Positions 43,189 to 60,348 of a DNA stretch of 64,000 bases are shown here, piece after piece. Below the pieces are notes generated by a model. That model saw only the letters and a program-made list of their open reading frames with translations. It was not told where the DNA came from and searched no databases. The stretch is from a bacterium (lineage in GTDB: Bacteria; Zhuqueibacterota; Zhuqueibacteria; Residuimicrobiales; Krinioviventaceae): assembly GCA_963675755.2 (NCBI GenBank), contig CAXXMD010000003.1:192001-256000 (forward strand), in the 5' to 3' direction. The position numbers and the translations under genes were made by a program. Each line of letters starts with the position of its first letter. Position 1 is the first letter of the stretch.

Positions 43189-44340
43189 ATGAAAATCGCA
43201 GTCCCCAAAGAGATCCTTCCCGGCGAAGAGCGGGTAGCCCTTGTTCCCGCTGTTGTCGGAAAATTGGTAAAATCGGAATACGATGTTGCTGTCGAAACCG
43301 GAGCCGGTACAGCGTCTGGTTATACGGACGAGCAATATAAAGAAGCAGGTGCTTCTATTGCCAACTCTGTATCCGAGCTGTATAACGGGGCCAATGTTAT
43401 ACTCAAAGTTCGCCCACCGGTAGAACATCCAACAGAAAAGAAACATGAAGCCGAGCTCATGCCGGACGGTTCTTTGTTGATCAGCTTTTTAGAGATTCTC
43501 AGGAATCCCGCAATTGCAGAAACGTTGGCAAAAAACAAGGTCAATTCCTTGAGCATGGATACAGTCCCTCGTATCAGCCGCGCCCAAAGTATGGATGCGC
43601 TGTCTTCACAGGCATCAGCAGCCGGTTATAAAGCCGTATTGATCGCCGCTGAAAACTCGCACAAATTCTTTCCCATGCTTACAACCGCAGCAGGTACTAT
43701 CCCTCCTGCCAAAGTTTTTGTCATTGGTGCAGGTGTTGCCGGTTTACAGGCCATTGCTACAGCTAAACGCCTGGGTGCCACCGTAGAAGGATTTGATATT
43801 CGTCCTGCAGCCAAAGGCGAAGTGGAAAGTCTGGGTGCCAAATTCGTAGAGGTAGACCTGGGAGAATCCACAGAAGCAGGCGGCGGCTATGCCAAAGAAG
43901 TGTCTGAAGAAGCCAAAAAGAAAGAACATGAAGCAGTACATAAACATGTAGCCATGTCTGATATTGTCATCACAACTGCTGCGGTGCCCGGTAAAAAAGC
44001 GCCCTTGCTGGTTACAACAGATATGGTTAAAGATATGAAACCCGGCAGCGTCATCGTTGATATGGCAGTTGAACAGGGAGGAAATGTTGAAGGTTCAAAA
44101 CCCGGTGAAATAGTTGACTTGAATGGTGTAAACATTATTGGGCCGGTGAACCTGCCTAGCAAAATGTCAATTCATACAAGCATGATGTATGCTAAAAATA
44201 TAACGTCGTTGTTAAACCTGCTCCTCAAAGAAGGAGAGGTTGTATTTGACTTTGAAGATGAAATCATCAAAGACAGTTGTATAACCCATAACGGCGATAT
44301 AGTTCACGAACAAACCAGACAGTTATTATCAAATGCATAA
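43189..44340 (+). CDS. pntA: NAD(P) transhydrogenase alpha subunit part 1 (domain I)
   Basis: MKIAVPKE...EERVA, PRISRAQSMDALSSQ, AGYKAV, GAGVAGLQAIATAKRLGA, GGGYAKE. Confidence 0.96.
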   Translation: MKIAVPKEILPGEERVALVPAVVGKLVKSEYDVAVETGAGTASGYTDEQYKEAGASIANSVSELYNGANVILKVRPPVEHPTEKKHEAELMPDGSLLISFLEILRNPAIAETLAKNKVNSLSMDTVPRISRAQSMDALSSQASAAGYKAVLIAAENSHKFFPMLTTAAGTIPPAKVFVIGAGVAGLQAIATAKRLGATVEGFDIRPAAKGEVESLGAKFVEVDLGESTEAGGGYAKEVSEEAKKKEHEAVHKHVAMSDIVITTAAVPGKKAPLLVTTDMVKDMKPGSVIVDMAVEQGGNVEGSKPGEIVDLNGVNIIGPVNLPSKMSIHTSMMYAKNITSLLNLLLKEGEVVFDFEDEIIKDSCITHNGDIVHEQTRQLLSNA

Positions 44341-44354
44341 GAAAGGAAAGTTGT

Positions 44355-44639
44355 ATGCCTGAACAATTATTAATGGGTATAACCGTTTTTGTGTTAGCCA
44401 TGTTTGTCGGCTTTGAAGTTATAACCAAAGTGCCGCCAACGTTGCATACACCACTCATGTCTGGTGCAAATGCAATTTCCGGTATTGCCATTATTGGCGC
44501 GCTGTTGGTTACAGGCCGCACAGATTTTTATCTTGAACTTGTACTAGGTGTAGTTGCTGTTGTTTTTGCCACCATAAATGTTGTAGGTGGTTTTCTAGTC
44601 ACAGACCGAATGTTGCAAATGTTTAAAAAGAAAAAGTGA
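44355..44639 (+). CDS. pntA: NAD(P) transhydrogenase alpha subunit part 2 (membrane)
   Basis: VPPTLHTPLMSGANAISG, INVVGGFLVTDRMLQMF. Confidence 0.95.
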   Translation: MPEQLLMGITVFVLAMFVGFEVITKVPPTLHTPLMSGANAISGIAIIGALLVTGRTDFYLELVLGVVAVVFATINVVGGFLVTDRMLQMFKKKK

Positions 44640-44649
44640 GAAATAAATT

Positions 44650-46050
44650 ATGGATGGTTTATCAACGTTTATTACCCTGTCCTATTTGTTATCAGCTGCG
44701 CTGTTCATATTAGGACTCAAGTATATGAGTTCTCCGGCAAGTGCCCGCCGGGGAAACCTGTTGGCCGCAATTGCCATGTTTATTGCGATTGTTGTAACTT
44801 TGCTCGATCGGCAAATCCTTAGCTACTCGTGGATCATTGTCGGTATCATTATTGGTTCAGTCATTGGCGCTGTTGCTGCCCGTCTGGTAAAAATGACTGC
44901 AATGCCAGAAATGGTAGGTATTTTTAATGGATTTGGTGGTGGTGCCTCTGCACTGGTAGCTATTGCTGAATTTATTCGCTTGACCGCAGAGCCCAACCCG
45001 GTAATTCCTATGGATATTTCCATTACCACAATCCTGGGTGTTATCATTGGTGGTATTACCTTTAGCGGCAGTTTTATTGCCTGGGGTAAACTGGCAGGCT
45101 TTATATCTGGTTCTCCCATTACTTTTCCATTACAAAAAGTGGTCAGCTCATTGGTAATGGCTGCTGCGGTTGTCATTTCCGTTTATATTATTGGCTGGGT
45201 ACCAGACATTGTATTGTTTTATGTAATTATTGGTTTATCTCTACTCTATGGTGTACTCTTGGTTATCCCAATCGGTGGTGCAGATATGCCGGTTGTGGTT
45301 TCACTATTAAACTCTTTTTCAGGTCTGGCAGCCTGTGCAGCAGGATTTGTAGTGGGTAACAATATTCTCATCATTGCGGGTTCCCTTGTTGGTTCCGCAG
45401 GTTTAATATTAACCCAGATCATGTGTAAAGCCATGAACCGTTCACTTACCAATGTACTCTTTAGCGCATTTGGTACAGGTGACATGGCCGCAGGCAGTAC
45501 CGAAGCAGGCGGCGACAAGTCAGCTCACTCGGTTGATGCTGAAGAGGCGTCTATGGTCATTGGCTATGCTCAGTCTGTTATTATTGTACCGGGCTATGGT
45601 ATGGCTGCTGCCCAGGCACAACACGCAGTACGTGAACTTACAGAGCTTCTTGAAAGCCGGGGCGTTGAAGTAAAATTTGCCGTTCACCCGGTTGCCGGTC
45701 GTATGCCGGGGCATATGAATGTATTACTGGCAGAAGCAAATGTTCCTTATAATTTGCTGCATGACATGGATGATATCAATCCGGAATTCCCGCATACAGA
45801 TGTTGTGCTGGTTATTGGCGCGAATGACGTTATCAATCCCGCAGCGCGCGAAGACAAGTCCAGTCCCATTTATGGAATGCCAATCCTGGATGTAGACAAG
45901 GCCCGTAATGTAATCATTATCAAGCGTAGTCTAAACCCGGGGTTTGCCGGTATTGATAATGAATTATTTTACGCTCCTAAAACACTCATGTTTTTTGGCG
46001 GTGCCCGTCAGGCAGTTCAGGAAATTGTAAGCGAAGTCAAAAAATTATAA
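44650..46050 (+). CDS. pntB: NAD(P) transhydrogenase beta subunit
   Basis: MTAMPEMV, IGGADMPVVVSLLNS, CKAMNRS, VPGYGMA, HPVAGRMPGHMNVLLAEA, GANDVINPAA. Confidence 0.97.
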   Translation: MDGLSTFITLSYLLSAALFILGLKYMSSPASARRGNLLAAIAMFIAIVVTLLDRQILSYSWIIVGIIIGSVIGAVAARLVKMTAMPEMVGIFNGFGGGASALVAIAEFIRLTAEPNPVIPMDISITTILGVIIGGITFSGSFIAWGKLAGFISGSPITFPLQKVVSSLVMAAAVVISVYIIGWVPDIVLFYVIIGLSLLYGVLLVIPIGGADMPVVVSLLNSFSGLAACAAGFVVGNNILIIAGSLVGSAGLILTQIMCKAMNRSLTNVLFSAFGTGDMAAGSTEAGGDKSAHSVDAEEASMVIGYAQSVIIVPGYGMAAAQAQHAVRELTELLESRGVEVKFAVHPVAGRMPGHMNVLLAEANVPYNLLHDMDDINPEFPHTDVVLVIGANDVINPAAREDKSSPIYGMPILDVDKARNVIIIKRSLNPGFAGIDNELFYAPKTLMFFGGARQAVQEIVSEVKKL

Positions 46051-46907: not shown

Positions 46908-48137
46908 ATGAAAAAAGTGTTAATTTTAGGTGCCGGAACTGCCGGTACAATTATGGCGAACAAACTGAGTCAGCATCTACCATTAGATCAATGGGAAATC
47001 ACCATCGTTGACAAGGAAGAAAATCACTATTATCAACCCGGTTTTTTATTTATACCCTTTAACATATACACACGCAATGATGTTATTAAACCCAAACGAG
47101 ATTATTTACCATCAAACGTTATTGTTGAAATGTCAGGAATTGAGGTCATTGAGCCAGAGAATAATCGTGTAAAACTCACGAACAACAAAGTTCTGGGTTA
47201 CGACTATCTCATTATCGCAACCGGTTCGAACGTCCACCCTGAAGAAACTGAAGGTTTAAAAAACGGCAAATGGAATGAAAATATATTTGAATTTTACACA
47301 CTGGACGGTTCGTGCCATTTACAAAAAGCGCTTAAACATTGGGAAGGCGGCAGACTTGCAGTAAATATTGTAGAAATGCCAATTAAATGCCCTGTAGCTC
47401 CACTCGAATTTTTGTTCCTTGCCGACTGGTGGTTTACCGAAAAAGGAATTCGTGATAAAGTGGATCTGACTTTTGTCACCCCCATGCCCGGTGCTTTTAC
47501 AAAACCAAAGGCATCTCAAATTTTAAATTCTTTTCTGGACAAGAAAAATATAAACCTGGTGTCTGAATTCAGTACCGGGTCTGTAAATGCAGATAAAAAT
47601 AAATTAACATCATGGGACGAGCGTGAAGTTGAATACGACTTGCTGGTAACGGTCCCCACCAATATGGGTGACGATTTAATAGCGCGTTCCGATATGGGTG
47701 ACGATTTAAACTTTGTACCCACTAACAAACATACACTGCAATCCAATGATTATGAAAATATTTTCGTCATTGGAGACGCAACAGACCTGCCAAGTTCAAA
47801 AGCTGGTTCCGTTGCGCATTTCCAGGCAGATGTTTTAACAGAAAACTTTATGAGACATATAGATGGTCTCCCCCTTCTTGAAGATTTTGATGGTCACGCC
47901 AACTGTTTTATTGAATCCGGATTTGGTAAAGGCTTGTTAATTGATTTTAATTATGATGTAGAACCCCTGCCAGGCAAATTCCCCTTGCCCGGTGTTGGTC
48001 CTTTTTCACTGTTGCAGGAAACCCAAATGAACCACTGGGGCAAAATGATGTTTAGATGGATTTACTGGAATTTATTACTCAAAGGTTCTGAACTCCCCAT
48101 ACAGGCACAGATGCAAATGGCCGGGAAAAAGGGTTAG
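46908..48137 (+). CDS. sqr: Sulfide:quinone oxidoreductase (type III-like flavoprotein disulfide reductase)
   Basis: ILGAGTAG, HYYQPG, IKCPVAPLEF, IGDATDLPSSKAGSVAHF, FDGHANCFIESG, C-terminal HWGKMMFRWIYW. Confidence 0.88.
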   Translation: MKKVLILGAGTAGTIMANKLSQHLPLDQWEITIVDKEENHYYQPGFLFIPFNIYTRNDVIKPKRDYLPSNVIVEMSGIEVIEPENNRVKLTNNKVLGYDYLIIATGSNVHPEETEGLKNGKWNENIFEFYTLDGSCHLQKALKHWEGGRLAVNIVEMPIKCPVAPLEFLFLADWWFTEKGIRDKVDLTFVTPMPGAFTKPKASQILNSFLDKKNINLVSEFSTGSVNADKNKLTSWDEREVEYDLLVTVPTNMGDDLIARSDMGDDLNFVPTNKHTLQSNDYENIFVIGDATDLPSSKAGSVAHFQADVLTENFMRHIDGLPLLEDFDGHANCFIESGFGKGLLIDFNYDVEPLPGKFPLPGVGPFSLLQETQMNHWGKMMFRWIYWNLLLKGSELPIQAQMQMAGKKG

Positions 48138-48146
48138 GGGGCTATT

Positions 48147-48797
48147 ATGGATAAAGATTTGGAAATTCTGAACCAAAAGCTGGACCATATTACTGAACGC
48201 CTGGAAGAGACTGCCAGACGTCAAAAAGAGTTCAAAGAGTTGCAGCATGATTTAACGCCAATCGTGTCCGATCTCTATCAATCCGTTGTAATGGAGCTGG
48301 ATCAGCTTTCTCCTTATTTTACTTATGAAGACATGCTGTATCTGGTCAAAAAACTTGTTCGTAACACCCGCAATATTACAGCTATGGTAGAACAGATGGA
48401 AAATATTTCAGATTTTGTTAAAGATGCAATGCCTCTTTCCAAGCCCTTGTTCCAAACAACGCTCGAAAACCTGAACACTCTGGAGCAAAAAGGTTATTTT
48501 ACACTAGGTCAACAACTATTACAAATAACAGACAAACTCGTAACTTCCTTTGATCCAAAAGAAATTGACAATATGGCTCAAAACATGGATGTCTATATTG
48601 ATCTTTTGAAAAAAGTATCACCAGACAAAATGACTGATAAAGTACAAGAGGCAGTAAAAGCTTATGACTCTGCAAAAGAAGCCAAACCTGCATCCTGGTT
48701 CAAGATACTAAAAGAGTTAAATGATCCCAATGTTAGACGAGAAATTTTCGCATTTATTTCATCGTTTAAAGTGTTAACAAAAGAGTCTCACAATTAA
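48147..48797 (+). CDS. DUF1641-like helical protein accompanying sqr
   Basis: All-helical; LEQKGYF and ILKELNDPNVRR; position directly after sqr. Confidence 0.7.
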   Translation: MDKDLEILNQKLDHITERLEETARRQKEFKELQHDLTPIVSDLYQSVVMELDQLSPYFTYEDMLYLVKKLVRNTRNITAMVEQMENISDFVKDAMPLSKPLFQTTLENLNTLEQKGYFTLGQQLLQITDKLVTSFDPKEIDNMAQNMDVYIDLLKKVSPDKMTDKVQEAVKAYDSAKEAKPASWFKILKELNDPNVRREIFAFISSFKVLTKESHN

Positions 48798-48818
48798 TTA
48801 TAAATGGAGGTATTCACT

Positions 48819-49136
48819 ATGCCGGTTAAACAAATAGCAGGGGTTCAGGTCGACCTTGATGATGAAGGATTCATGATCAATCCCGATCAATGGACTAGAG
48901 AAATAGCCGTTGAACTTGCAAAAGAAGAAGGTATAGATACTCTCACAGACGGTCACTGGAAAATCATTGATTTTGTAAGAAAAGATTCCAAAGAAAAAGG
49001 TCAAATACCTACAATACGCAGAATGAAAAACATAGGTGGCATAGCGACCAAAGATCTTTACGATCTTTTTCCGCAAGGTCCGGCAAAGAAATCTGCAAAA
49101 ATTGCAGGCTATCCTAAACCCAAGGGCTGTGTATAA
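48819..49136 (+). CDS. tusE: TusE/DsrC-family sulfur relay protein (TusE type, single C-terminal Cys)
   Basis: DDEGF...W.REIA, HWKIIDFVR, LYDLFPQGPAKKSAKIAGYPKPKGCV; lacks the second Cys of DsrC; GGAGG before ATG 48819. Confidence 0.88.
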   Translation: MPVKQIAGVQVDLDDEGFMINPDQWTREIAVELAKEEGIDTLTDGHWKIIDFVRKDSKEKGQIPTIRRMKNIGGIATKDLYDLFPQGPAKKSAKIAGYPKPKGCV

Positions 49137-49151
49137 ACAAGGAGACGTTTA

Positions 49152-49631
49152 ATGGCTGATAACGAAAAGTCAAGAATAGAAAAAGTATCGATTGTGATCT
49201 CCCGTGGCTCACTTGATGGAGTTTATCCGGGATTGATTATGGCTAATGGTGCCCGTATGGAAGGTATTGATGCAACAATCTTTTTTACATTCTTTGGGCT
49301 GGAAGCCATTATGAAAAAACGTGCAGACAAACTCAAAGTATCAACTGTAGGGAATCCGGCAATGCACATGCCTACTATGGTTGGAATGCTGCCGGGAATG
49401 TCATCATTTGCAACGAGCATGATGAAAAAAGAAATGGATAAACTGGATATTCCCCCGGTAGGAGAATTTATTGAAATGATCTCTGATACCGGTGCAGATC
49501 TGTTTGCCTGTAAAGCAACCGTAGATATGTTCCATCTTTCAATTGATGACTTTCTCCCCCAGGTTGATGGAATTATCAATGTAGGAGAGTTTTACGAACG
49601 TTCTGCCAACGCGCAGATCATTTTTACATAA
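49152..49631 (+). CDS. DsrE/DsrF/DrsH-like (DsrE2) sulfurtransferase
   Basis: SIVISRGSLDGVYPGLI, FFTFFGL, LFACKATVDMF, AQIIFT. Confidence 0.87.
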   Translation: MADNEKSRIEKVSIVISRGSLDGVYPGLIMANGARMEGIDATIFFTFFGLEAIMKKRADKLKVSTVGNPAMHMPTMVGMLPGMSSFATSMMKKEMDKLDIPPVGEFIEMISDTGADLFACKATVDMFHLSIDDFLPQVDGIINVGEFYERSANAQIIFT

Positions 49632-49633
49632 TC

Positions 49634-49668
49634 AAATGCGGGATGTATTTTCATCCCGCATTTTTTTT
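49634..49668 (+). terminator. Intrinsic terminator inside the sulfur cluster
   Basis: aaatgcgggatg / catcccgcattt plus T8. Confidence 0.85.
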
Positions 49669-49777
49669 GCAATATTGTATTGTTTTTTGTAACTTTACTT
49701 ACTTGCCAAAACTGTTTTCTAAAAATTTACAATTTCAAAAATATGACAAACTAAAGTTAAACGAGTACGGAACGAAA

Positions 49778-51214
49778 ATGAAGAAAAAAGCATTAACATC
49801 TCTATCGATCTTGCTGACAATTATTATTGTCATCACAATCCCGGTAATCTGGTTGTTAAACCCATCTACAGAAGAAAAAGATGCCTGGGCCAATGTACCG
49901 AAAAGATTACCCCAAACTAGTCATGCCGATCTTATAAAGGGCCCCTTTAAAGACGGACCCTCTGTAACCCGGGCGTGTTTAGAGTGTCATCCTGATGCTG
50001 GTGAGCAGGTCATTCACTCTGCGCACTTTACCTGGGAAAGCCCGGCAATACAACTACCCGGTAGAGATAAACCGGTTGTTTTGGGTAAAAAACACGCAAT
50101 GAACAACTTTTGTATTGGTATTACCTCAAACTGGCCTCCTTGTACCGCATGTCACACCGGTTACGGTTGGGAAGACGATTCTTTTGATTTTACCAATCAG
50201 GAACTCATTGACTGTCTTGTCTGTCACGACCATTCCGGACAATATGTAAAATCCAAAGGCGGCTACCCTGCCCCGGATGTAGACCTGGTTGCGGTAGCAA
50301 AAAGTGTTGGCCCCACCACACGAGACAACTGTGGCGGTTGTCATTTTAGAGGTGGCGGCGGTAACGCAGTAAAACATGGTGATCTGGATGAAAGTCTCTA
50401 CAATCCCAATGAGAGTATCGATATCCATATGGGTAAATACAACTTTTTATGCACCGACTGTCACCAGACTGAAAACCACAACATTAAAGGCAGATCCATA
50501 TCTGTAAGTGCCGACAATGAAAATCAGGCTTATTGCACAGATTGTCACGATCAAAAAACGCACAAAGATGAACGTATTAACACACATACAGCTTCGGTTG
50601 CCTGCCAGACTTGTCACATCCCTCATGCCGCAGTCAAAGAAGCAACCAAAATGCATTGGGACTGGTCTGAAGCGGGTAAAGATTTACCCGAGAATCCTCA
50701 CGAATATTTAAAGATCAAAGGTCGCTTTGTATATGAAAAAAATATTCAACCCGATTATTTCTGGTTTAACGGTAATGCCAAACACTATGTAATGGGAGAC
50801 AAAATAGATCCGTCTCAACCCACATTAATGAACGAACCGGATGGCAGCATCAAAGATCCCAATGCCAAAATCTGGCCGTTTAAACTACATACTGCAAAAC
50901 AAATTTATGATCCGGTTAATAATTATTTACTGGTCCCCAAGACCTTTGGTAAAGGCGGTTTCTGGACTGAATTTGACTGGGAAAAAGCGGCTGAACTGGG
51001 TTCCGAGGCAACAGGCCTTGATTACAGCGGCCAATTTGGATTTACCAATACAGTCATGTTCTGGCCCATTACACATATGGTGACATCAAAGGACAAAGCA
51101 CTGCAATGTGTTGATTGTCATGGAGAAAGTGAAAATACAAGAATGGACTGGTCCGCTTTGGGTTACGATGGTGACCCCATGTTGACTGGTGGAAGAAAAA
51201 ATAAAAATCTATAA
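49778..51214 (+). CDS. otr: Octaheme tetrathionate reductase family c-type cytochrome
   Basis: Eight CxxCH motifs (CLECH, CTACH, CLVCH, CGGCH, CTDCH x2, CQTCH, CVDCH); GK...NNFC, CHTGYGW, GGGGNAVKHGDL; N-terminal anchor; the ORF-track start at 49643 lies inside the terminator. Confidence 0.9.
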   Translation: MKKKALTSLSILLTIIIVITIPVIWLLNPSTEEKDAWANVPKRLPQTSHADLIKGPFKDGPSVTRACLECHPDAGEQVIHSAHFTWESPAIQLPGRDKPVVLGKKHAMNNFCIGITSNWPPCTACHTGYGWEDDSFDFTNQELIDCLVCHDHSGQYVKSKGGYPAPDVDLVAVAKSVGPTTRDNCGGCHFRGGGGNAVKHGDLDESLYNPNESIDIHMGKYNFLCTDCHQTENHNIKGRSISVSADNENQAYCTDCHDQKTHKDERINTHTASVACQTCHIPHAAVKEATKMHWDWSEAGKDLPENPHEYLKIKGRFVYEKNIQPDYFWFNGNAKHYVMGDKIDPSQPTLMNEPDGSIKDPNAKIWPFKLHTAKQIYDPVNNYLLVPKTFGKGGFWTEFDWEKAAELGSEATGLDYSGQFGFTNTVMFWPITHMVTSKDKALQCVDCHGESENTRMDWSALGYDGDPMLTGGRKNKNL

Positions 51215-51231
51215 ACCATAAAGGATTCGTA

Positions 51232-53865
51232 ATGCTAAGCAAACGCTTTATATTTATCACAATCTTTTTCGCGCTACTGACAGGCCAGGTTTTTTCCGAA
51301 TCCCTTCACCCGGATGTAAAGCTGCTTGACCAAAACGGTACTCCCGTTATTACCAGTGGTTTACCTGTATCTACAATGAAAACCTGTGGAACATGTCACG
51401 ATGCTGAATATATCGCATCTCACAGTTATCATAGCACCGTTGGTTTTGACAAAAATACAGATAATGAAACAACAGATCCCGGCTTCTTTAACAATTGGGA
51501 CCCTGTCATCTATCATCGCATGATGAATGATGAACTCAAAGATGGCAACCTGGGTCTTGCAAACTGGCTCATGACCTATGGTAAAAGGCACGTGGGTGGC
51601 GGCCCTGCTGAATTCAACCAGGCAATGAAACCGTTGAATGCTCCCAATGCTCAATCAAGTAAAACTGAAAACCACTGGCACAATCCCCAAACAGGTTCAA
51701 TCGAATCCTGGAACTGGCAAAATTCGGGCATAGTAGAGATGAATTGTTTTCTTTGTCACACACCCAATCCCGACAACCAGGCAAGAATGGAAGCGCTTGA
51801 GCAAGGCCACTTTAAATGGGCAAACACGGCAACATTAACCGGTATTGCGGTTAAAAGCGGTGACCGTTATCGCTACAATACCAACAGTATAAATCCGGAT
51901 GGTACTGTAAAACGATCAGTCTTTCAGGTTACAGATCCTTCGAATGAAAATTGCGGTCTCTGTCATGGCTTGGTTAAAGATGATGAATCCAATCCTGTTG
52001 TGCTTACCGAATGTACACCTGAAAATTGGTCTACCATGACTACCGGACAGATTTTCTCGCCGCAACGGATCTCTGACAGCGGATTGAATCTTGAAGATAA
52101 ATCTGATCTGGCTTATGCCTGGGATGTACACGCGGAAAGACTTGTAAATTGTGTGGATTGCCATTTTTCAATCAACAATCCCATCTATTATCAGGAATCA
52201 GCAAAAACCCGTCCTGCTCACCTGAATTTTGATGCACGCCGGATGGATATTGACGATTACCTGTTAAAACCCAGTCACGACTTTGCATTCGGCCCCGGCA
52301 ATCACAATCCTGAAAGCAATACATTTAGCAACAATATGAGAAGATGCGAGTCTTGCCATAATATTGAGGCAACACACGATTGGTTACCTTACAAAGAAAG
52401 ACATATGCAAACCATGATATGTGAATCCTGCCACATTCCTCATATTCGCTCAACTGCCAAACAGACTGTTGACTGGACAATGATTCATCCGGATGGCACA
52501 CCAAGAACCGAGTGCAGAGGTACGGATGCGTCTGCACCCAACAGCAATACATTATTAAAAGGATATCAACCCGTACTTTTGGGTCGTGTTGAACCGGATG
52601 GAAGCTCTCGCCTTGCTCCCTATAACCTGATCACTTCATGGTTTTGGGTACAGGGTGAAAATGAAGCACCTGTATTATTAAGCGATCTGAAAAAAGCGCT
52701 GTTAAATGGTGATGCTTTTGACTCTCAGATTGTCAAGTTCCTGGATGCTAATCAAAATGGTTCTCTTGAAGACAGTGAAATGGTGTTAAATTCTACTGAA
52801 AAAATAGAGTTTATAAAATCCCGACTTTCATCTATCGGATTGACCAATTTTGCAATCAAAGGTGAAGTGAATCCTTACGGATTACACCACAATGTTACAC
52901 ATGGTGACTGGACAACCCGTACATGCGAATCCTGTCACAGTAACAAATCTAAAATATCTCAACCCATGGTTCTTGCAAGCAGCTTTCCCCCGGTTGTTCC
53001 GCAAATGATCAATCGTGGATCAATAATACCCAAAGGCAAAGTCATCACAAAAAATAAAGTGCTGGTCTTTAAACCAGCACCGGATAGGAATGGATATTAC
53101 ATTTTGGGTCACGACAAAAGTATGGTTGCCCAGGTTATCGGCGCGTTAATATTCATATCCGTCATAATTGGTATTGCCATTCATGCAACACTGCGTGTAA
53201 TTGCAACGGCAAAACACACACATGAAAAAGGACCCTTTAAAAGCATATACATGTACACCGTTTATGAAAGGTTCTGGCATTGGATGCAGGCAATAGCCAT
53301 TATTGGTTTAATTTTTACAGGCTTGACTATCCACTCTCCATTGGTATTCAAGTTCATGCCCTTCCATGTTGCGGTAATTATTCACAATGTACTGGGTTTT
53401 ATTTTACTGGGTAATGCCTTTTTGGCTGCATTTTATCATTTTTCAAGTGGTAAAATCAAAAACTATTTGCCCGAACCCAAAGGATTTTTCAGTCAGGCTA
53501 TAGATCAAACCCTGTTTTACATCAAGGGCATTTTCAAAGGCCAGCCTCACCCCTTTGAAAAAGATATTGATAAAAAACTGAATCCATTACAAAAGATAAC
53601 TTATCTTATTATATTGAATGCATTGCTTCCTATACAAATCATTACCGGCATTCTGATCTGGGGAGCACAAAGATGGCCGGCATTGGCAGAATCGTTAGGT
53701 GGATTGCTTATATTGGTTCCCTTACACTCTTTGGTCGCGTGGTTCTTTGCTGCTTTTCTCATGCTGCATATTTATTTAACCACTACCGGTTACACACCCA
53801 CATCAGCTATTCAGGCAATGATAATCGGATGGGAAAAAGTTCATACAAATCATAATGGAGATTGA
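51232..53865 (+). CDS. Seven-heme OTR-like cytochrome c fused to a C-terminal membrane cytochrome b (PhsC/HyaC-like)
   Basis: Signal peptide; CGTCH, CFLCH, CGLCH, CVDCH, CESCH x3; YERFWHW, IIHNVLG, KLNPLQKITY, LHSLVAW, MLHIYLTTTG. Confidence 0.85.
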   Translation: MLSKRFIFITIFFALLTGQVFSESLHPDVKLLDQNGTPVITSGLPVSTMKTCGTCHDAEYIASHSYHSTVGFDKNTDNETTDPGFFNNWDPVIYHRMMNDELKDGNLGLANWLMTYGKRHVGGGPAEFNQAMKPLNAPNAQSSKTENHWHNPQTGSIESWNWQNSGIVEMNCFLCHTPNPDNQARMEALEQGHFKWANTATLTGIAVKSGDRYRYNTNSINPDGTVKRSVFQVTDPSNENCGLCHGLVKDDESNPVVLTECTPENWSTMTTGQIFSPQRISDSGLNLEDKSDLAYAWDVHAERLVNCVDCHFSINNPIYYQESAKTRPAHLNFDARRMDIDDYLLKPSHDFAFGPGNHNPESNTFSNNMRRCESCHNIEATHDWLPYKERHMQTMICESCHIPHIRSTAKQTVDWTMIHPDGTPRTECRGTDASAPNSNTLLKGYQPVLLGRVEPDGSSRLAPYNLITSWFWVQGENEAPVLLSDLKKALLNGDAFDSQIVKFLDANQNGSLEDSEMVLNSTEKIEFIKSRLSSIGLTNFAIKGEVNPYGLHHNVTHGDWTTRTCESCHSNKSKISQPMVLASSFPPVVPQMINRGSIIPKGKVITKNKVLVFKPAPDRNGYYILGHDKSMVAQVIGALIFISVIIGIAIHATLRVIATAKHTHEKGPFKSIYMYTVYERFWHWMQAIAIIGLIFTGLTIHSPLVFKFMPFHVAVIIHNVLGFILLGNAFLAAFYHFSSGKIKNYLPEPKGFFSQAIDQTLFYIKGIFKGQPHPFEKDIDKKLNPLQKITYLIILNALLPIQIITGILIWGAQRWPALAESLGGLLILVPLHSLVAWFFAAFLMLHIYLTTTGYTPTSAIQAMIIGWEKVHTNHNGD

Positions 53866-53871
53866 TAATAA

Positions 53872-54402
53872 ATGAAAACCAATCAAATTGAAAACGGAAA
53901 ACCGTATATGAATCCCTACCTGGCAGGAACCCTGCTTGGGATCGTACTCTTTTTAGCGTTTTTTATCACAGGGAACGGATTGGGTGCATCCGGTGGAATT
54001 AACAGAATCTTACTCTATGTTGAAGACGCGGTAGCGCCTGCTCATGTAGACCATGTGCCCTATTTATTAAGCATGGCCGGTGGAGATAAAAATCCCCTGG
54101 ATCATTGGATCGTCTTTTTAACAATTGGCACCTTGATTGGAGGCTTTATCTCCGGCCTGATCCACAAACGGGTAAAATTGAAAACAGCCAAAGGCCCCAA
54201 TATTACCAACTGGCAGCGCTGGGTATTGGCGTTTGCGGGAGGTATATTTATGGGGTATGGCGCCAGAATGGCGCGAGGCTGTACTTCCGGTCAGGCACTC
54301 TCCGGAGGAGCGGTATTGTCTGCCGGAAGCTGGGCGTTCATGTTTGCGGTTTTTGCAGGTGGTTACGCGGTTGCATGGTTTGTTAGAAAAATCTGGAATT
54401 AA
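53872..54402 (+). CDS. YeeE/YedE sulfur-compound transporter (half-size)
   Basis: NPYLAG, GLGASG, GYGARMARGCTSGQALSG. Confidence 0.88.
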   Translation: MKTNQIENGKPYMNPYLAGTLLGIVLFLAFFITGNGLGASGGINRILLYVEDAVAPAHVDHVPYLLSMAGGDKNPLDHWIVFLTIGTLIGGFISGLIHKRVKLKTAKGPNITNWQRWVLAFAGGIFMGYGARMARGCTSGQALSGGAVLSAGSWAFMFAVFAGGYAVAWFVRKIWN

Positions 54403-54420
54403 AAAAGGACGGATAAAAAA

Positions 54421-55647
54421 ATGGCACCTTTCCCTATAGATGCAATTCTTGGTAAATTCGGAGCGTATCTGATCTACTTGTTGATCGGAGTTGGCTTTGG
54501 CTCTGTTTTAGAAATGGCAGGTTTTGCCCACTCGCCCAAACTTGCCGCTCAATTTTATTTCAAAGACATGACGGTACTAAAAGTCATGTTTACTGCAATT
54601 ATTGTTGCAATGACACTCATATTTCTCTCATCAGGCTTTATGATGCTCGACTTTGACAAGTTGTGGGTGAACCCTACCTACCTCTGGCCCGGCATTATAG
54701 GCGGATTGATTATGGGTGTAGGTTTTATAATTGGTGGATTTTGTCCCGGAACATCACTGGTTGCGTTAGCTACCTTGAGAGTAGACGGTTTCTTTTTTGT
54801 ACTGGGCGCAACCACAGGTATCTTTATTTTTGGTGAAACGGTAAGCAATTATACAGGTTTCTGGACATCTTCCTACCTGGGACGAATTATACTGCCAGAA
54901 GTCTTTCACGTTCATACTGGCGTAATTGTACTGCTCGTCATTCTCATGGCTCTCTTTATGTTTAAAGGTGGAGAGATGCTTGAAGCTGCTATTGGAAAGA
55001 AAACAATCACAAAATCAAAATGGAAAGTTGCAGGTGCCTCTGCCCTTGTTGTCTTGTCATTGTTGGGCATTGTGATTGGTCAACCTTCTGTACAGGACAA
55101 GTGGGAAATGGTCTCCAAAACCAAACAGGCACTTTTGGATGATCGCCAGGTACAAATTCATCCCGGTGAATTGCTTGACCTGATGTATGATGACAGCAAA
55201 AATCTGGTTTTGCTGGACGTACGGCCGGAAAAAGACTATAATATATTCCACATAAAAAACGCGAAAATGGTTGAATTAAATGAAATACCACAATACGCTT
55301 CAGAACTACTGCATGAACCAGCCAATACGGTAATTGTAACTATATGCAATAATGAAAAATTGTCTACTATTGCATGGCAGTGGTTAACCGCGCTAAACGT
55401 TCCCAATGTATATATTCTTGAAGGTGGCATTAACAACTGGCTTGATATTTTCGGGCATGAAGGTCATGAGAATTGTTATACCGTTAAAGACAAAGACGAT
55501 ACTTCTTTACGGCATATTTTCAACTCAGCATTAGGATCACGTTACGAAGCGGCAGAGCCGGAACCGGAACACCAGGAATCAAAACTGTTATTTGAACCCA
55601 AAGTAAAAATTGCCACCCAGGTAAGACGTCAAGGTGGTTGCGGATAA
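54421..55647 (+). CDS. YeeE/YedE transporter fused to a rhodanese domain
   Basis: GFGSVLE.AGF, FYFKDMTVLKVMF, GGFCPGTS; LLDVRP...FHIKNA, IVTIC, YILEGGINNW; C-terminal GGCG. Confidence 0.88.
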   Translation: MAPFPIDAILGKFGAYLIYLLIGVGFGSVLEMAGFAHSPKLAAQFYFKDMTVLKVMFTAIIVAMTLIFLSSGFMMLDFDKLWVNPTYLWPGIIGGLIMGVGFIIGGFCPGTSLVALATLRVDGFFFVLGATTGIFIFGETVSNYTGFWTSSYLGRIILPEVFHVHTGVIVLLVILMALFMFKGGEMLEAAIGKKTITKSKWKVAGASALVVLSLLGIVIGQPSVQDKWEMVSKTKQALLDDRQVQIHPGELLDLMYDDSKNLVLLDVRPEKDYNIFHIKNAKMVELNEIPQYASELLHEPANTVIVTICNNEKLSTIAWQWLTALNVPNVYILEGGINNWLDIFGHEGHENCYTVKDKDDTSLRHIFNSALGSRYEAAEPEPEHQESKLLFEPKVKIATQVRRQGGCG

Positions 55648-57234: not shown

Positions 57235-58254
57235 TTATTTCATATAGATGCTCCAGGAGATTCTGTGTACAGAGCCAAAAAACTCGCCAAAGTCACCATA
57301 GGAGTAATCAAATTTTACACCATAGTTACCCAAGGGTTTGTTGACACCAACACCAAAGGTCAATCCTTCTTCATCATAATTGAATTTGTAACCACCGCGC
57401 AGGAACAGCATATTACTCATACCATATTCAGCACCAAGGTGAATACGTTCAGAGTAATCTCTGGGGTGAATTGCATCTACTGCAACTGTCAGTTTATGCA
57501 TATCACTGTCTGCAAACAAGGTCATTACATCCATTGCCATACCAATATTGAACATCAAAGGCAATTCAAAACGTTCAAACACATAACGACCCTGGCGGGA
57601 AAAGTTGCGGATTGACATAGCAACGCGCAAATCTTTCCAACCTGTGTAATACAGGGTACCAAAATCAAATGCATTTACAGTTTGTTCATTTTGTACAACG
57701 GTTTCACCATAGACTTCATGCAAGATCAAGCTTTCATACAAGTCCTGTTTAACCATTTTTATCTGGGCACCGATTGAAAATTGGTTGCTGATACGACGAC
57801 CATAAGATAATCCTACAGCATATTCGCCAACTTCAAAGTCACCAAGGTCTTCATAACCTTGGTTTCTCAGTATAGGATCAGAACCATCATACGGACGTGT
57901 TTCTGTCATTGTACCATAGTCCATATAGATCAAGCTAACACCAAAAGTACCCCAGTTTTTAAAACCGTAAGCAACACCACCGGCATAATGTTTAATGTCG
58001 GCAATCCAATTGGTTTGGTTCATTGCAACTTCAAAGCCATCAACAAAAGCGAGACCAGCCAGATTCGAAAACATGGATGTGGCATCATCAGTAACGGCTG
58101 CACTGGCACTACCCATTGCAGAAGCACGACCACCTACATCAATTTTTAAGAACGGCATACCCGTTTGACCTAATTTATCAATAGCTTGTGACGCAGGACT
58201 AAGTCCCAATATTAATAGCGCCGTCACCAGCAAATAAAAAACAGTTTTTTTCAT
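57235..58254 (-). CDS. PorV/PorQ-family outer-membrane beta-barrel protein
   Basis: Signal peptide; FLKIDVGGRASAMGSA, SMFSNLAGLA, WIADI, HLGAEY, FLRGGYKFNYD, FDYSY, VHRIS. Confidence 0.87.
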   Translation of the reverse strand: MKKTVFYLLVTALLILGLSPASQAIDKLGQTGMPFLKIDVGGRASAMGSASAAVTDDATSMFSNLAGLAFVDGFEVAMNQTNWIADIKHYAGGVAYGFKNWGTFGVSLIYMDYGTMTETRPYDGSDPILRNQGYEDLGDFEVGEYAVGLSYGRRISNQFSIGAQIKMVKQDLYESLILHEVYGETVVQNEQTVNAFDFGTLYYTGWKDLRVAMSIRNFSRQGRYVFERFELPLMFNIGMAMDVMTLFADSDMHKLTVAVDAIHPRDYSERIHLGAEYGMSNMLFLRGGYKFNYDEEGLTFGVGVNKPLGNYGVKFDYSYGDFGEFFGSVHRISWSIYMK

Positions 58255-58290
58255 TTCATTTCCTCCTTATTCATGCCTTTTACCCAAAGG

Positions 58291-60348
58291 TTATTTAACC
58301 ACTACAAATTTTCCAATTGCAGTTTCACCCGTTGGGCTGCCTTGAGGACCATCTAATTCTTCAACAACAAACAGATAGATACCGCTCACAATTCTCATTG
58401 AAGAGAAAGTGTCCTGACGGGTCCATTCTTCGTCACCTGTTCCTTCGTTATGATACAGAGTCTGTACCAGGTCACCTGTCATTGTGTAGATGTGGATATT
58501 ACAATAAGCAGGTGTATTGAGGAATTTAATTTGATCTTCTTCATATTTGTAGCGGGAAAGGGCATTAAAAGGATTCGGTACAACAACTACATTGTCTTTC
58601 CAGTTTGCATCCGGTGAACGTGTCGGTGCAACAGCTTCATCAACTCGATTATCTCCGGATTTCAACTGACCGGAACGGTTCAGCAGCATACTGCTTTCGG
58701 TTCCATCAGTGGTATACGCGGTTACATAATACCAATAGTTTTGTCCGCGGATTACATCCGTATCAACATAACTATGAGTTGACGCATTAACATCTGCAAG
58801 CAGTACAAATGTTGTATCAGTTGGTATAGCCAATTCCGCTGGGCGGTAATAGTTACGATAGATCTTGTATCCGGCAAGACCCGGGAACCCATCAGCTTCT
58901 GTGCCCCAATCAATTTCAATTTGATCAGGAACTGAAGTTAATGTTAATGAAGGAGATGGTGGTGTAGCAGGAACCATCAACTCACCAGTACCCCTGAATA
59001 CGTCGCTGTTTTCCCAGATTCTTTTCAACATTCCGGCCTTTTTAAAAACAGAATCTTTACCGGTATCAATGATCATGTCTTTTTGTACCTGGCTCAGAAA
59101 ACTTCCTTGAACTCCAAGATCCATTACATCATAAGGCATTTCAACATTAAGCTGACTAGAGTATCCGGCTTTATAAGCACGACCGGCATCAATAGCCAGA
59201 CGGTGGTTAATAGAGCCACCAATGTAAGCAACTACAATACGCACATCTTCACCTGGAGCCATCTGGTAAGGACCAAAATGGAATGAACCGGGTTTTGCCT
59301 GTTCTTCAACAGGATTACTAACATGTGCTACCCAACTGCCGATCAAGCTGCGATACATACCGCTTTCATCAGTCTGCAGACTGGGGTTAGCTGTATTCCA
59401 GGGGCCAGACATGAATTCATAAATCTCGTCATGGGTTGCTTCACTCAATGAAGGAAGTAACTCACGCTGTGACCAACCCGCTTTATGCGGTTGTGCAGGA
59501 TCATCAGTATCATCGGTAGTGCTTTTATCCGCATGAAGTACCTGCATACCCATATATTGTGGTTTTTCAAAGTTACCCCAGATCAGATCAGGGTTGGCTT
59601 TGTCATCTTCAGGAATTTCAGGTTCGTCTGCTTCCCACATGTAGTAGAGACGCAGTGAATCTTGACCACTTGCATAACCAGCGCCATAGTAATCTGACCA
59701 CAAGTTACCGGGATAGTGATCACCTGTCATCATTTCAGTAACGATACTGAAATAAACATCAGTTTTAGCTTCGTTAGATGCGTTTTCAAAAACCCATTCA
59801 TAAACAACAAAGTCATCATATTCTTGATTGGCACACGCGTAAACCCAACGTTCTACATCAATACCGGTCCAGGTATTCCACTTGCCATAGACCATACCGT
59901 CTGCAGGAATTGATTCGTCAACAGGGTCGGTTTTGTACTGTGCATCAGTCCAGTCACGGCCATCAATCATTCTGATAGGTGGCGCATATTTAAAAACACG
60001 TTTAAAAGCACCGCTTACGGGCACAATTACGTTTTCAATTTCAGTAAATTTGCTTTGTATACCCTGGGCAATTTTATGTTCCCAAGGTACACCATTACCA
60101 TCTGTCCAACTCATTTTAACGCCAACATTGATACCGTTAACAGATGATACTTCTCTGGCATCACTATCAAGATTATTATTCCAGGTTTGGGGGTATTGCA
60201 TTGACATTGCACTGATCGTCTCCCCCGGTGTCACCTGGATATCACCGAATCTCAACTGTCTGGTAGACGACTGACCCAATAGTGTTGAATTTATGAGCAA
60301 CAGCAGAACAAGAACAAATAATCCGCCGTACTTGAAAAGTTTTTTCAT
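58291..60348 (-). CDS. Secreted protein with Fn3-like module and a variant T9SS-type CTD
   Basis: Signal peptide; PPSPSL...GYKIYR...YVDTDV..GQNYWYYVTAY; VVVVPNPF...IKFLN.P...IHIYTMTGDLVQTL...SGIYLFVVE...GKFVVVK. Confidence 0.8.
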   Translation of the reverse strand: MKKLFKYGGLFVLVLLLLINSTLLGQSSTRQLRFGDIQVTPGETISAMSMQYPQTWNNNLDSDAREVSSVNGINVGVKMSWTDGNGVPWEHKIAQGIQSKFTEIENVIVPVSGAFKRVFKYAPPIRMIDGRDWTDAQYKTDPVDESIPADGMVYGKWNTWTGIDVERWVYACANQEYDDFVVYEWVFENASNEAKTDVYFSIVTEMMTGDHYPGNLWSDYYGAGYASGQDSLRLYYMWEADEPEIPEDDKANPDLIWGNFEKPQYMGMQVLHADKSTTDDTDDPAQPHKAGWSQRELLPSLSEATHDEIYEFMSGPWNTANPSLQTDESGMYRSLIGSWVAHVSNPVEEQAKPGSFHFGPYQMAPGEDVRIVVAYIGGSINHRLAIDAGRAYKAGYSSQLNVEMPYDVMDLGVQGSFLSQVQKDMIIDTGKDSVFKKAGMLKRIWENSDVFRGTGELMVPATPPSPSLTLTSVPDQIEIDWGTEADGFPGLAGYKIYRNYYRPAELAIPTDTTFVLLADVNASTHSYVDTDVIRGQNYWYYVTAYTTDGTESSMLLNRSGQLKSGDNRVDEAVAPTRSPDANWKDNVVVVPNPFNALSRYKYEEDQIKFLNTPAYCNIHIYTMTGDLVQTLYHNEGTGDEEWTRQDTFSSMRIVSGIYLFVVEELDGPQGSPTGETAIGKFVVVK

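Follow-up and report, generated by a model that had tools for sequence, protein, structure and literature searches.

We examined a 64,000-nucleotide (nt) stretch of contig CAXXMD010000003.1 in GenBank assembly GCA_963675755.2, from a bacterium of the phylum Zhuqueibacterota (positions 192,001 to 256,000; this whole stretch is called the window below, and coordinates are counted from its first nucleotide). Our subject is a run of four genes at 49778-55647 that encode an octaheme tetrathionate reductase (OTR) family protein, an 877-amino-acid (877-aa) protein in which a heptaheme c-type cytochrome domain is joined to a cytochrome b, and two YeeE/YedE-family proteins, the second of which carries a rhodanese domain. 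With a probability that we put at roughly 0.7, these genes form an operon for a membrane-bound OTR-type reductase made from two diverged homologues, in which the 877-aa protein acts as the wire from quinol to OTR. The features that bear on this reading are as follows.

49778..51214, + strand: OTR family protein, 478 aa (TIGR04315, match to 1sp3, 8 CxxCH)
50087..50089, + strand: codon of K104, counterpart of the heme II lysine ligand in Shewanella oneidensis OTR (1sp3 alignment)
50141..50155, + strand: heme-2 attachment motif CTACH of OTR (invariant C122, C125, and H126)
51232..53865, + strand: 877-aa fusion, with signal peptide, predicted seven-heme OTR-fold domain, linker transmembrane (TM) helix, and four-helix di-heme cytochrome b
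51301..53121, + strand: extracytoplasmic heptaheme c-type domain (c-domain), residues 24-630, predicted OTR fold without heme 2
51577..51603, + strand: heme-2 motif relic YGKRHVGGG, residues 116-124 (MAFFT alignment with 8-heme relatives)
53122..53214, + strand: first TM helix, residues about 631-661 (DSSP helix; invariant H651 and R655)
53230..53862, + strand: FdnI/PhsC-like four-helix di-heme cytochrome b, residues 667-877 (PF01292, NF011582, 1kqf_C)
53872..54402, + strand: YeeE/YedE-family half transporter, 176 aa (PF04143, E value 1.5e-22)
54421..55647, + strand: second YeeE/YedE half with a C-terminal rhodanese domain, residues 249-341 (PF04143, PF00581)

The OTR gene ends 17 nt before the start of the 877-aa gene, which is followed after 6 nt by the first YeeE half. 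Every gene at 46908-55647 lies on the + strand in the open reading frame (ORF) list of the window, and a search of the window's genome recovered one OTR and one fusion of the 877-aa kind.

The OTR and the heptaheme protein downstream of it

By its sequence, the upstream gene encodes a full member of the OTR family for which reductase activity is predicted. Its product scores 569.4 bits against TIGR04315 (cutoff, 375; residues 49-463 on model positions 3-440), matches S. oneidensis OTR (1sp3) with an E value of 2e-148, and carries CxxCH motifs at residues 67, 122, 146, 185, 225, 253, 276, and 444; the N terminus is a hydrophobic anchor or signal, and there is no C-terminal TM helix. In our own count of the alignment, K104 falls on residue 56 of the 1sp3 chain and C112 on residue 64, and K104 is invariant in 71/71 partner OTRs. 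An earlier study has heme II of the S. oneidensis enzyme (SO4144) attached via C74xxC77H78 and ligated by Lys56 (PMC3769277), and another names the second heme of OTR as the catalytic one (PMC11024163).

The 877-aa protein begins with a hydrophobic N terminus, interpreted by eye as a signal peptide, and has seven CxxCH motifs, at residues 52, 172, 241, 307, 372, 397, and 565; together with the eight of OTR these make up the 15 c-type heme motifs that a first-pass annotation, made from the sequence alone, had counted in the pair. All seven motifs and seven further histidines of the c-domain are invariant among homologues. The same annotation had mapped the heme motifs of the 877-aa protein in order onto those of the upstream OTR. 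Direct similarity of the two proteins by BLASTP is weak (29% over 75 aa; E value, 2e-5), and an hhalign comparison of 74 fusion c-domains with 71 partner OTRs gave a probability of 98.9% (E value, 2e-16; 396 columns) and paired fusion hemes 1-7 with OTR hemes 1, 3, 4, 5, 6, 7, and 8, which bears out the proposed order. Six of the distal histidines pair directly with conserved OTR histidines, and a seventh conserved histidine in the N terminus of each protein (H26, H49) is left unpaired.

Structural comparison pointed to the same family. For an AlphaFold2 (AF2) model of the c-domain alone (predicted local distance difference test score [pLDDT], 84; predicted template modeling score, 0.86; 72-row alignment), 1sp3 was the sole Foldseek match at an E value of ≤0.001 (4e-8; the next was 0.12), and a VIA-align comparison with 48,161 representative chains returned 1sp3 at Z 11.9 (root mean square deviation [rmsd], 4.8 Å; 336/436 aligned, end to end) as the only chain above Z 3, the next one lying at Z 2.7. 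The full-length AF2 model had a pLDDT of 69 and reached 1sp3 with only Z 7.6, and the domain-only model was used instead. Sequence searches of the Protein Data Bank with HMMER, starting from the single sequence or from a profile, were marginal (E value for 1sp3 of 0.03 with the profile), so that recognition of the kinship to OTR needed profile-profile and fold comparison. A search of the ESM Atlas with the c-domain, with PF01292 clusters excluded, returned generic multiheme clusters only. Against TIGR04315 the c-domain scored 21.7 bits, far under the cutoff of 375, and it is about 140 residues longer than OTR. Judged from the predicted structure, the c-domain is a homologue of OTR that shares its fold, as had been supposed. 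The first-pass annotation had pictured a duplicated OTR converted into a noncatalytic wire; the OTR fold without heme 2 stands, and the c-domain of the fusion belongs to an old sister lineage of canonical OTR and is not a recent copy of its neighbor.

The heme that the fusion lacks is heme II, as first proposed: the profile pairing skips OTR heme 2, and the position of the relic in a MAFFT alignment agrees. In that alignment, the motifs CG(T/S/A/N)CH(V/L/P)G(G/A/S)G and CAICHTGSG of 8-heme relatives lie exactly over YGKRHVGGG, and CTACHTGYG of OTR occupies the same columns, which confirms the correspondence read by eye in the first-pass annotation; the two cysteines are replaced by Y116 and R119, and the histidine is kept as H120. 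The register that hhalign gave for heme 2 (over E127-Q130, 11 residues off, with a K104-L109 pairing) was overruled by the MAFFT alignment with the 8-heme relatives. An x-R-H pattern is found at this position across the 74 fusion homologues, R119 and H120 are nearly invariant and G122-G124 invariant, and both heme-2 cysteines are gone in 68/68 counted seven-heme forms (54/60 complete representatives; the CCH pattern occurs in 0/74 genome homologues). The loss is conserved throughout the fusion family, with seven CxxCH motifs in 71/73 full-length homologues and eight in 68/70 partner OTRs.

At the lysine column, N87-N88 of the window's fusion stand against G103-K104 of OTR; GK is kept in 46/74 fusion homologues, and no cysteine is found there. 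The segment GK..NNFC, which had been described as absent, is therefore diverged and not deleted, and the GK of these homologues would be a relic if our reading of the sequences is right. Further residues that are invariant in OTR and not conserved in the fusion are C112, C122/C125/H126, K158, K199, H200, K291, K314, and K369. One lysine, K290, is invariant in the fusion homologues and sits in an insertion that OTR does not have. As the c-domain offers seven invariant nonmotif histidines for seven hemes, bis-His ligation would be available for every remaining heme.

Five long helices follow residue 630 in the model of the 877-aa protein. A segment of the fusion's hidden Markov model that includes the first of them (621-665) matches the C-terminal tails of 4/4 TM-type OTRs (12.9-19.5 bits), and on this sequence match we take the helix to be homologous to the C-terminal anchor of those OTRs, which pair with a separate cytochrome b; the fusion thus resembles an OTR-type protein with a TM anchor to which its cytochrome b has been attached. 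The final part of the protein scores 76.6 bits against PF01292 (cutoff, 30.1; residues 675-864), its best named model is that of PhsC (NF011582; E value, 1e-40; 139.9 bits, below the cutoff of 204), and in the AF2 model its residues 667-877 superpose on FdnI (1kqf_C) with Z 14.0 (rmsd, 4.1; 186 aligned). Four histidines, H683, H718, H832, and H846, are invariant in 40 homologues, with H832 and H846 spaced 14 residues apart. The C-terminal module is accordingly the His-ligated cytochrome b that had been recognized earlier, and it is presumed to hold two b-hemes and a quinol site. In formate dehydrogenase-N, FdnH contributes one extra TM helix beside the four-helix FdnI.

Distribution, gene order, and related architectures

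The fusion family comprises at least 1990 clusters at 90% identity, the best 120 of which are all full length (46-94% identity), and at least 578 species genomes hold relatives. When 1.84 billion representatives clustered at 50% identity were searched with a profile, 1136 c-domain relatives were recovered at an E value of ≤0.001 and 412 at ≤1e-30. The database names given to family members are only "cytochrome b/b6 domain-containing protein" or "thiosulfate reductase cytochrome b subunit." Among the best 80 genome loci, 74 are Chloroflexota-type by our own reading, and the others include Cytophagia, KSB1, Gammaproteobacteria, and Acidimicrobiia. Gene order was counted in those of these 80 loci that had enough flanking sequence, and the counts describe a pattern, not independent statistics: OTR lies directly upstream on the same strand in 67/68 loci (66 by script, the OTR of L077 having been missed through a long stop-to-stop frame), the first YeeE half downstream in 66/67, and the YeeE-rhodanese gene downstream in 66/67. 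The co-occurrence of the OTR and fusion genes, on which the first-pass annotation depended, also holds in 19/19 metagenome loci, described below.

An ArsR-family (PF01022) regulator of about 107 aa lies about 300-450 nt upstream of OTR in 48/80 of the genome loci (among L005-L080, e.g., L006:8028-8351), with a cysteine in an H-x-x-I-C-x-A-L context in the six copies examined; the window has no ArsR-family regulator upstream of OTR. This protein might be a sulfur-responsive repressor of the OTR operon.

Among the best 150 of the 1136 c-domain relatives, 60 have a complete c-domain in register: 46 of these carry seven hemes and one TM helix, the cytochrome b being separate, eight have seven hemes fused to cytochrome b, and six keep a CxxCH at the heme-2 position, five of them together with GK. 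Three representatives join OTR and the heptaheme domain covalently. P0221 (1180 aa) combines an OTR (564 bits; residues 49-461), a seven-heme domain, and a PhsC-like cytochrome b at 942-1170, and OTR and the seven-heme domain share one chain in P0212 (990 aa) and in the fragment P0256. At the junction in all three, the C-terminal motif of OTR is followed by a short linker and the mature heptaheme N terminus; as no signal peptide lies between, these are natural fusions and not read-through artifacts. Extra N-terminal CxxCH motifs occur in the c-domain relatives P0143, P0187, and P0122 (totals of 10, 13, and 9), whose sequences suggest longer wires on the same core.

Scanning metagenomes with the 8-heme forms as seeds gave 80 loci, 72 with a complete c-domain, and the two main groups differ in their surroundings (upstream and downstream counts from loci with enough flank).

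8-heme split forms, 46 metagenome loci: OTR upstream in 1/37, YeeE downstream in 0/27, GK in 46/46
7-heme fused forms, 23 metagenome loci: OTR upstream in 19/19, YeeE downstream in 19/19, GK in 12/22 tallied

The 8-heme split forms have a separate cytochrome b in all cases where the sequence continues. At L118, and by inspection at L119, an OTR, an 8-heme form, and a separate cytochrome b occur together as an intermediate. The loss of heme 2 is tied to having a partner OTR.

A cytochrome b is found beside OTR in other forms as well. With the cytochrome b part as the query, 24 of the 167 genomes from the window's phylum gave a match, most of the matches lying in frames of 742-911 aa. At L106-L108, a canonical 8-heme OTR is followed by a plain 218- to 263-aa cytochrome b and then by YeeE genes (L106 stops after the first), which marks the cytochrome b as the native membrane partner of OTR; OTRs of this type have a C-terminal TM helix bearing the motif H-x3-R. 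On one Anaerolineae contig, an 8-heme OTR with a TM anchor and a plain cytochrome b beside it (L063:4762-7105) precede an OTR-fusion-YeeE operon. Shorter fusions, in frames of 742-786 aa and still with seven CxxCH motifs, occur at L098-L102 in family f4 of the window's phylum, where L099 and L102 form a long-branched pair in the tree. The window's genome also holds a second, unrelated bc-type fusion of 524 aa (G000:C3:1631019-1632590; L109:559-2130). Its seven CxxCH motifs fall within roughly 270 residues, one of its TM helices bears H-x3-R, and its PF01292 cytochrome b shares 37% identity with that of the window; homologues of this fusion occur in three related genomes (L110-L112).

A tree of 51 c-domains (IQ-TREE, LG+G4) has an unresolved trichotomy of three clades, made up of 25 seven-heme rows (SH-aLRT, 99), 14 solo 8-heme rows (99), and three 8-heme-with-OTR rows (100). 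On this tree, one change is enough to account for the heme-2 state, and the presence of all seven-heme rows in one clade is consistent with a single loss. The ancestor was likely an OTR-like enzyme with eight hemes, the lysine, a TM anchor, and a cytochrome b of its own on a separate chain. The likely course thereafter is that a canonical OTR joined this enzyme as its partner, that heme 2 disappeared in a single event, and that several lineages fused the protein to the cytochrome b.

In the window, the four genes are preceded by a set of sulfur-related genes and a potential terminator.

46908..49631, + strand: upstream sulfur-gene unit with type III SQR, DUF1641 protein, TusE/DsrC-like protein, and DsrE2-like protein (family profile matches)
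49634..49663, + strand: terminator-like hairpin with a 12-bp stem and then a T run, in the gap from the DsrE2 stop codon to the start of OTR (consensus scan only)

The hairpin sets the sulfur-gene unit apart from the OTR operon and argues against a longer OTR ORF that would start at 49643. The SQR/DUF1641/TusE/DsrE2 unit lies beside the operon elsewhere at L032, L036, L052, and L054 (partial) among the best 80 genome loci and at L140 and L187 among the 80 metagenome loci. The SQR (46908-48137) scores 661 bits against the NCBIfam model "type III SQR, selenoprotein subtype" (cutoff, 525) and has no in-frame stop, and it is presumably the cysteine form rather than a selenoprotein; the TusE/DsrC-like protein has a C-terminal stretch with a single cysteine as the second-last residue (...GCV). 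Farther out, three genes at 43189-46050 (383, 94, and 466 aa) resemble by eye a split PntA/PntB transhydrogenase, and minus-strand genes at 57235-60348 resemble by eye an outer membrane beta-barrel protein and a large secreted protein.

Proposed electron path, substrate, and competing readings

If the four genes work as a wired reductase, the di-heme cytochrome b, together with the extra TM helix, would take electrons from (mena)quinol, and these would cross to the outer face of the membrane and run along seven bis-His c-hemes of the OTR-fold domain. The heptaheme domain may dock on the separate canonical OTR and hand the electrons to it, and OTR would reduce the substrate at heme 2 with Lys104; the whole chain would comprise 2 b-hemes and 15 c-hemes. 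Co-folding of OTR residues 40-478 with residues 1-560 of the c-domain, both supplied as alignments, gave a score of 0.00 and a mark of 0.32 without controls, which speaks neither for nor against binding. An argument that the genome is without NapC/CymA was rejected, since PF03264 (NapC/NirT family) matches at four other places in it; in the proposed scheme, the OTR-fusion pair would operate independently of NapC/CymA.

The substrate is most likely a sulfur oxyanion, because the split YeeE-type transporter with its rhodanese follows in nearly every locus. YeeE has a role in thiosulfate uptake. The window's YeeE halves lie below the cutoffs of the TsuA models (40.6 bits versus 400 and 31.3 versus 645) and of the YedE model, Pfam PF04143 being the only family whose threshold they reach, and the rhodanese loop of the 54421-55647 product carries a cysteine in the translation as read by eye. 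The YeeE-rhodanese pair would then transport thiosulfate, or a compound related to it, through the membrane for use in sulfur transfer. Among individual reactions, our rough ranking gives tetrathionate to thiosulfate the best odds, themselves well short of even, with sulfite only slightly less favored, nitrite or hydroxylamine somewhat behind, and other sulfur or selenium species a poor prospect. Even for the Shewanella OTR, tetrathionate is doubtful as the substrate. The in vitro nitrite and hydroxylamine activities of OTR are reported to dominate (PMC12949373).

Several known systems resemble parts of this arrangement. MmcA of Methanosarcina acetivorans is an OTR relative that has seven hemes, is without the second heme motif and the lysine, and is a demonstrated electron conduit (PMC11024163); the window's c-domain likewise has seven hemes and neither the OTR heme-2 motif nor its lysine, and the MmcA model TIGR04314 is the best-scoring named multiheme model for the fusion (44.2 bits versus a cutoff of 250; E value, 1e-11; residues 296-518). 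Unlike the fusion, MmcA is archaeal and encoded in an Rnf operon, and it has no fused cytochrome b and no adjacent OTR (PMC11024163). S. oneidensis OTR (SO4144, 1sp3) shares with the window the full-member status of the upstream gene and, in the c-domain, the predicted fold and the seven-heme order. The Shewanella enzyme is soluble, and CymA has been proposed as its ultimate donor (PMC12949373), whereas the window's OTR has a dedicated membrane partner.

CbcL of Geobacter sulfurreducens, compared here by description, combines like the fusion a di-heme b-type TM domain with a multiheme c domain that lies in the periplasm and has bis-His hemes only; it oxidizes quinol on behalf of cytochromes further down the chain (PMC9129911). 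It differs in having nine c-hemes, six TM helices, and the soluble triheme partner PpcA, and no OTR origin has been reported for its c-domain. FdnH/FdnI of Escherichia coli formate dehydrogenase-N and PhsC of thiosulfate reductase share with the window a four-helix di-heme cytochrome b and an extra TM helix that comes from the electron-transfer subunit, an arrangement that occurs here both split, as TM-type OTR plus cytochrome b, and fused; they are unlike the window in that their periplasmic partner is an Fe-S/molybdopterin module and here it is a multiheme cytochrome. OTR has been linked to the membrane and quinone pool via a neighboring cytochrome b in Thermosulfurimonas dismutans (TDIS_1882/1883; PMC4911364), and it lies beside a cytochrome b/b561 as the probable quinone link in the Ignavibacteria metagenome-assembled genome Ch128a (PMC7509429). 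Compared by description, neither paper reports a cytochrome b with a multiheme domain, a loss of heme 2, or YeeE-rhodanese genes.

The heptaheme-cytochrome b protein could instead be a general quinol oxidase, an electron outlet for several acceptors, possibly extracellular, with OTR as one client or a mere neighbor. MmcA and CbcL work in this way (PMC11024163, PMC9129911), a second, unrelated fusion of seven CxxCH motifs and cytochrome b exists in the same genome (L109), and most hosts are Chloroflexota, whose envelope may favor membrane-tethered conduits. One genome locus, L007 (L007:9962-12631), has the fusion without OTR or YeeE within 10 kb and is the sole exception on both sides. We regard this alternative as improbable all the same, given the near-constant presence of OTR immediately upstream, the three natural proteins that join the two parts covalently, and the fact that the loss of heme 2 goes with a partner OTR.

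Electrons might also flow the other way, with thiosulfate or another reduced sulfur compound being oxidized by OTR and the wire and cytochrome b reducing quinone, in the manner of a thiosulfate:quinone oxidoreductase or an FdnGHI-type redox loop. The cytochrome b resembles FdnI, the module that reduces quinone in formate dehydrogenase-N; moreover, the window's operon adjoins SQR, DsrE2, and TusE-like genes typical of sulfur oxidizers, and OTR enzymes are reported to oxidize thiosulfate, though with very low activity (PMC12949373). Such a cluster lies beside the operon in few loci only, however, and the closest named model, PhsC, is the quinol-oxidizing subunit of thiosulfate reductase. The tetrathionate/thiosulfate couple is far more positive than menaquinone, so that quinone reduction would be uphill for menaquinone-using anaerobes. 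We give reverse flow a slim chance and, on these thermodynamic grounds, find the reductive direction more plausible than thiosulfate oxidation.

It is very improbable that the seven-heme domain has stayed catalytic by way of a new active site (e.g., around RHVGGG, K290, or the retained GK), which would make the operon one of two different catalysts, for although the relic region is strongly conserved, K290 is invariant, and GK persists in many homologues, no heme is obviously short of a sixth ligand, both heme-2 cysteines are gone in every counted seven-heme form, the OTR-invariant residues are not conserved, and a partner OTR is generally lacking where heme 2 has been retained.

A number of points weigh against the reading of the four genes as a reductase with its own quinol-side wire. 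The AF2 models hold polypeptide only, without hemes, and the retained GK leaves some room for residual function. The loci behind the gene-order counts are interrelated, having been gathered by similarity, and L007 departs from the pattern. Three split seven-heme loci were seen in the metagenomes, two with YeeE and two with a partial OTR upstream. The tree comes from an IQ-TREE quick search, carries support from the Shimodaira-Hasegawa-like approximate likelihood ratio test (SH-aLRT) only, and is rooted by taking nine canonical OTRs as the outgroup. The PF03264 matches elsewhere in the genome make another donor possible. As to the substrate, finally, OTR is reported to have no part in the tetrathionate respiration of Shewanella sp. 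strain ANA-3, and a role as a sulfite reductase was suggested (PMC12949373).

Novelty and meaning of the arrangement

A heme-2-less OTR relative as a conduit, a multiheme-c/di-heme-b quinol oxidase, and OTR-cytochrome b gene pairs are already known. Our literature search, which covered main texts and only a minority of the subscription journals, found no description of a heptaheme-cytochrome b fusion next to OTR, nor, within the same scope, of its strict pairing with a catalytic OTR and YeeE-rhodanese or of the series of 8-heme, split, fused, and triple-fused forms. The physiological function and electron donor of OTR are reported never to have been established (PMC12949373). Against this background, a strictly conserved operon of OTR, a quinol-side partner, and a YeeE/rhodanese pair provides a concrete, testable system, and it points to sulfur rather than nitrogen chemistry.

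We offer a broader view only tentatively and think it unlikely to hold in full. The family may preserve every stage in the conversion of an enzyme into its own electron cable, from an 8-heme, lysine-bearing, TM-anchored form with a cytochrome b, through the addition of OTR (as at L118 and L119), a single disappearance of heme 2, and the joining of the cytochrome b, to the triple fusion; the heptaheme clade could include or have given rise to the archaeal MmcA; and the operon might reveal the role and donor of OTR, which would be the terminal reductase in a pathway that links quinol to sulfur oxyanions and is common among Anaerolineae and further uncultured bacteria.

The OTR-plus-wire arrangement is widespread in uncultured bacteria. 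If our reading is correct, it would be a natural example of a multiheme enzyme subfunctionalized into a catalyst and a wire, and a bacterial parallel to the MmcA of methanogens.

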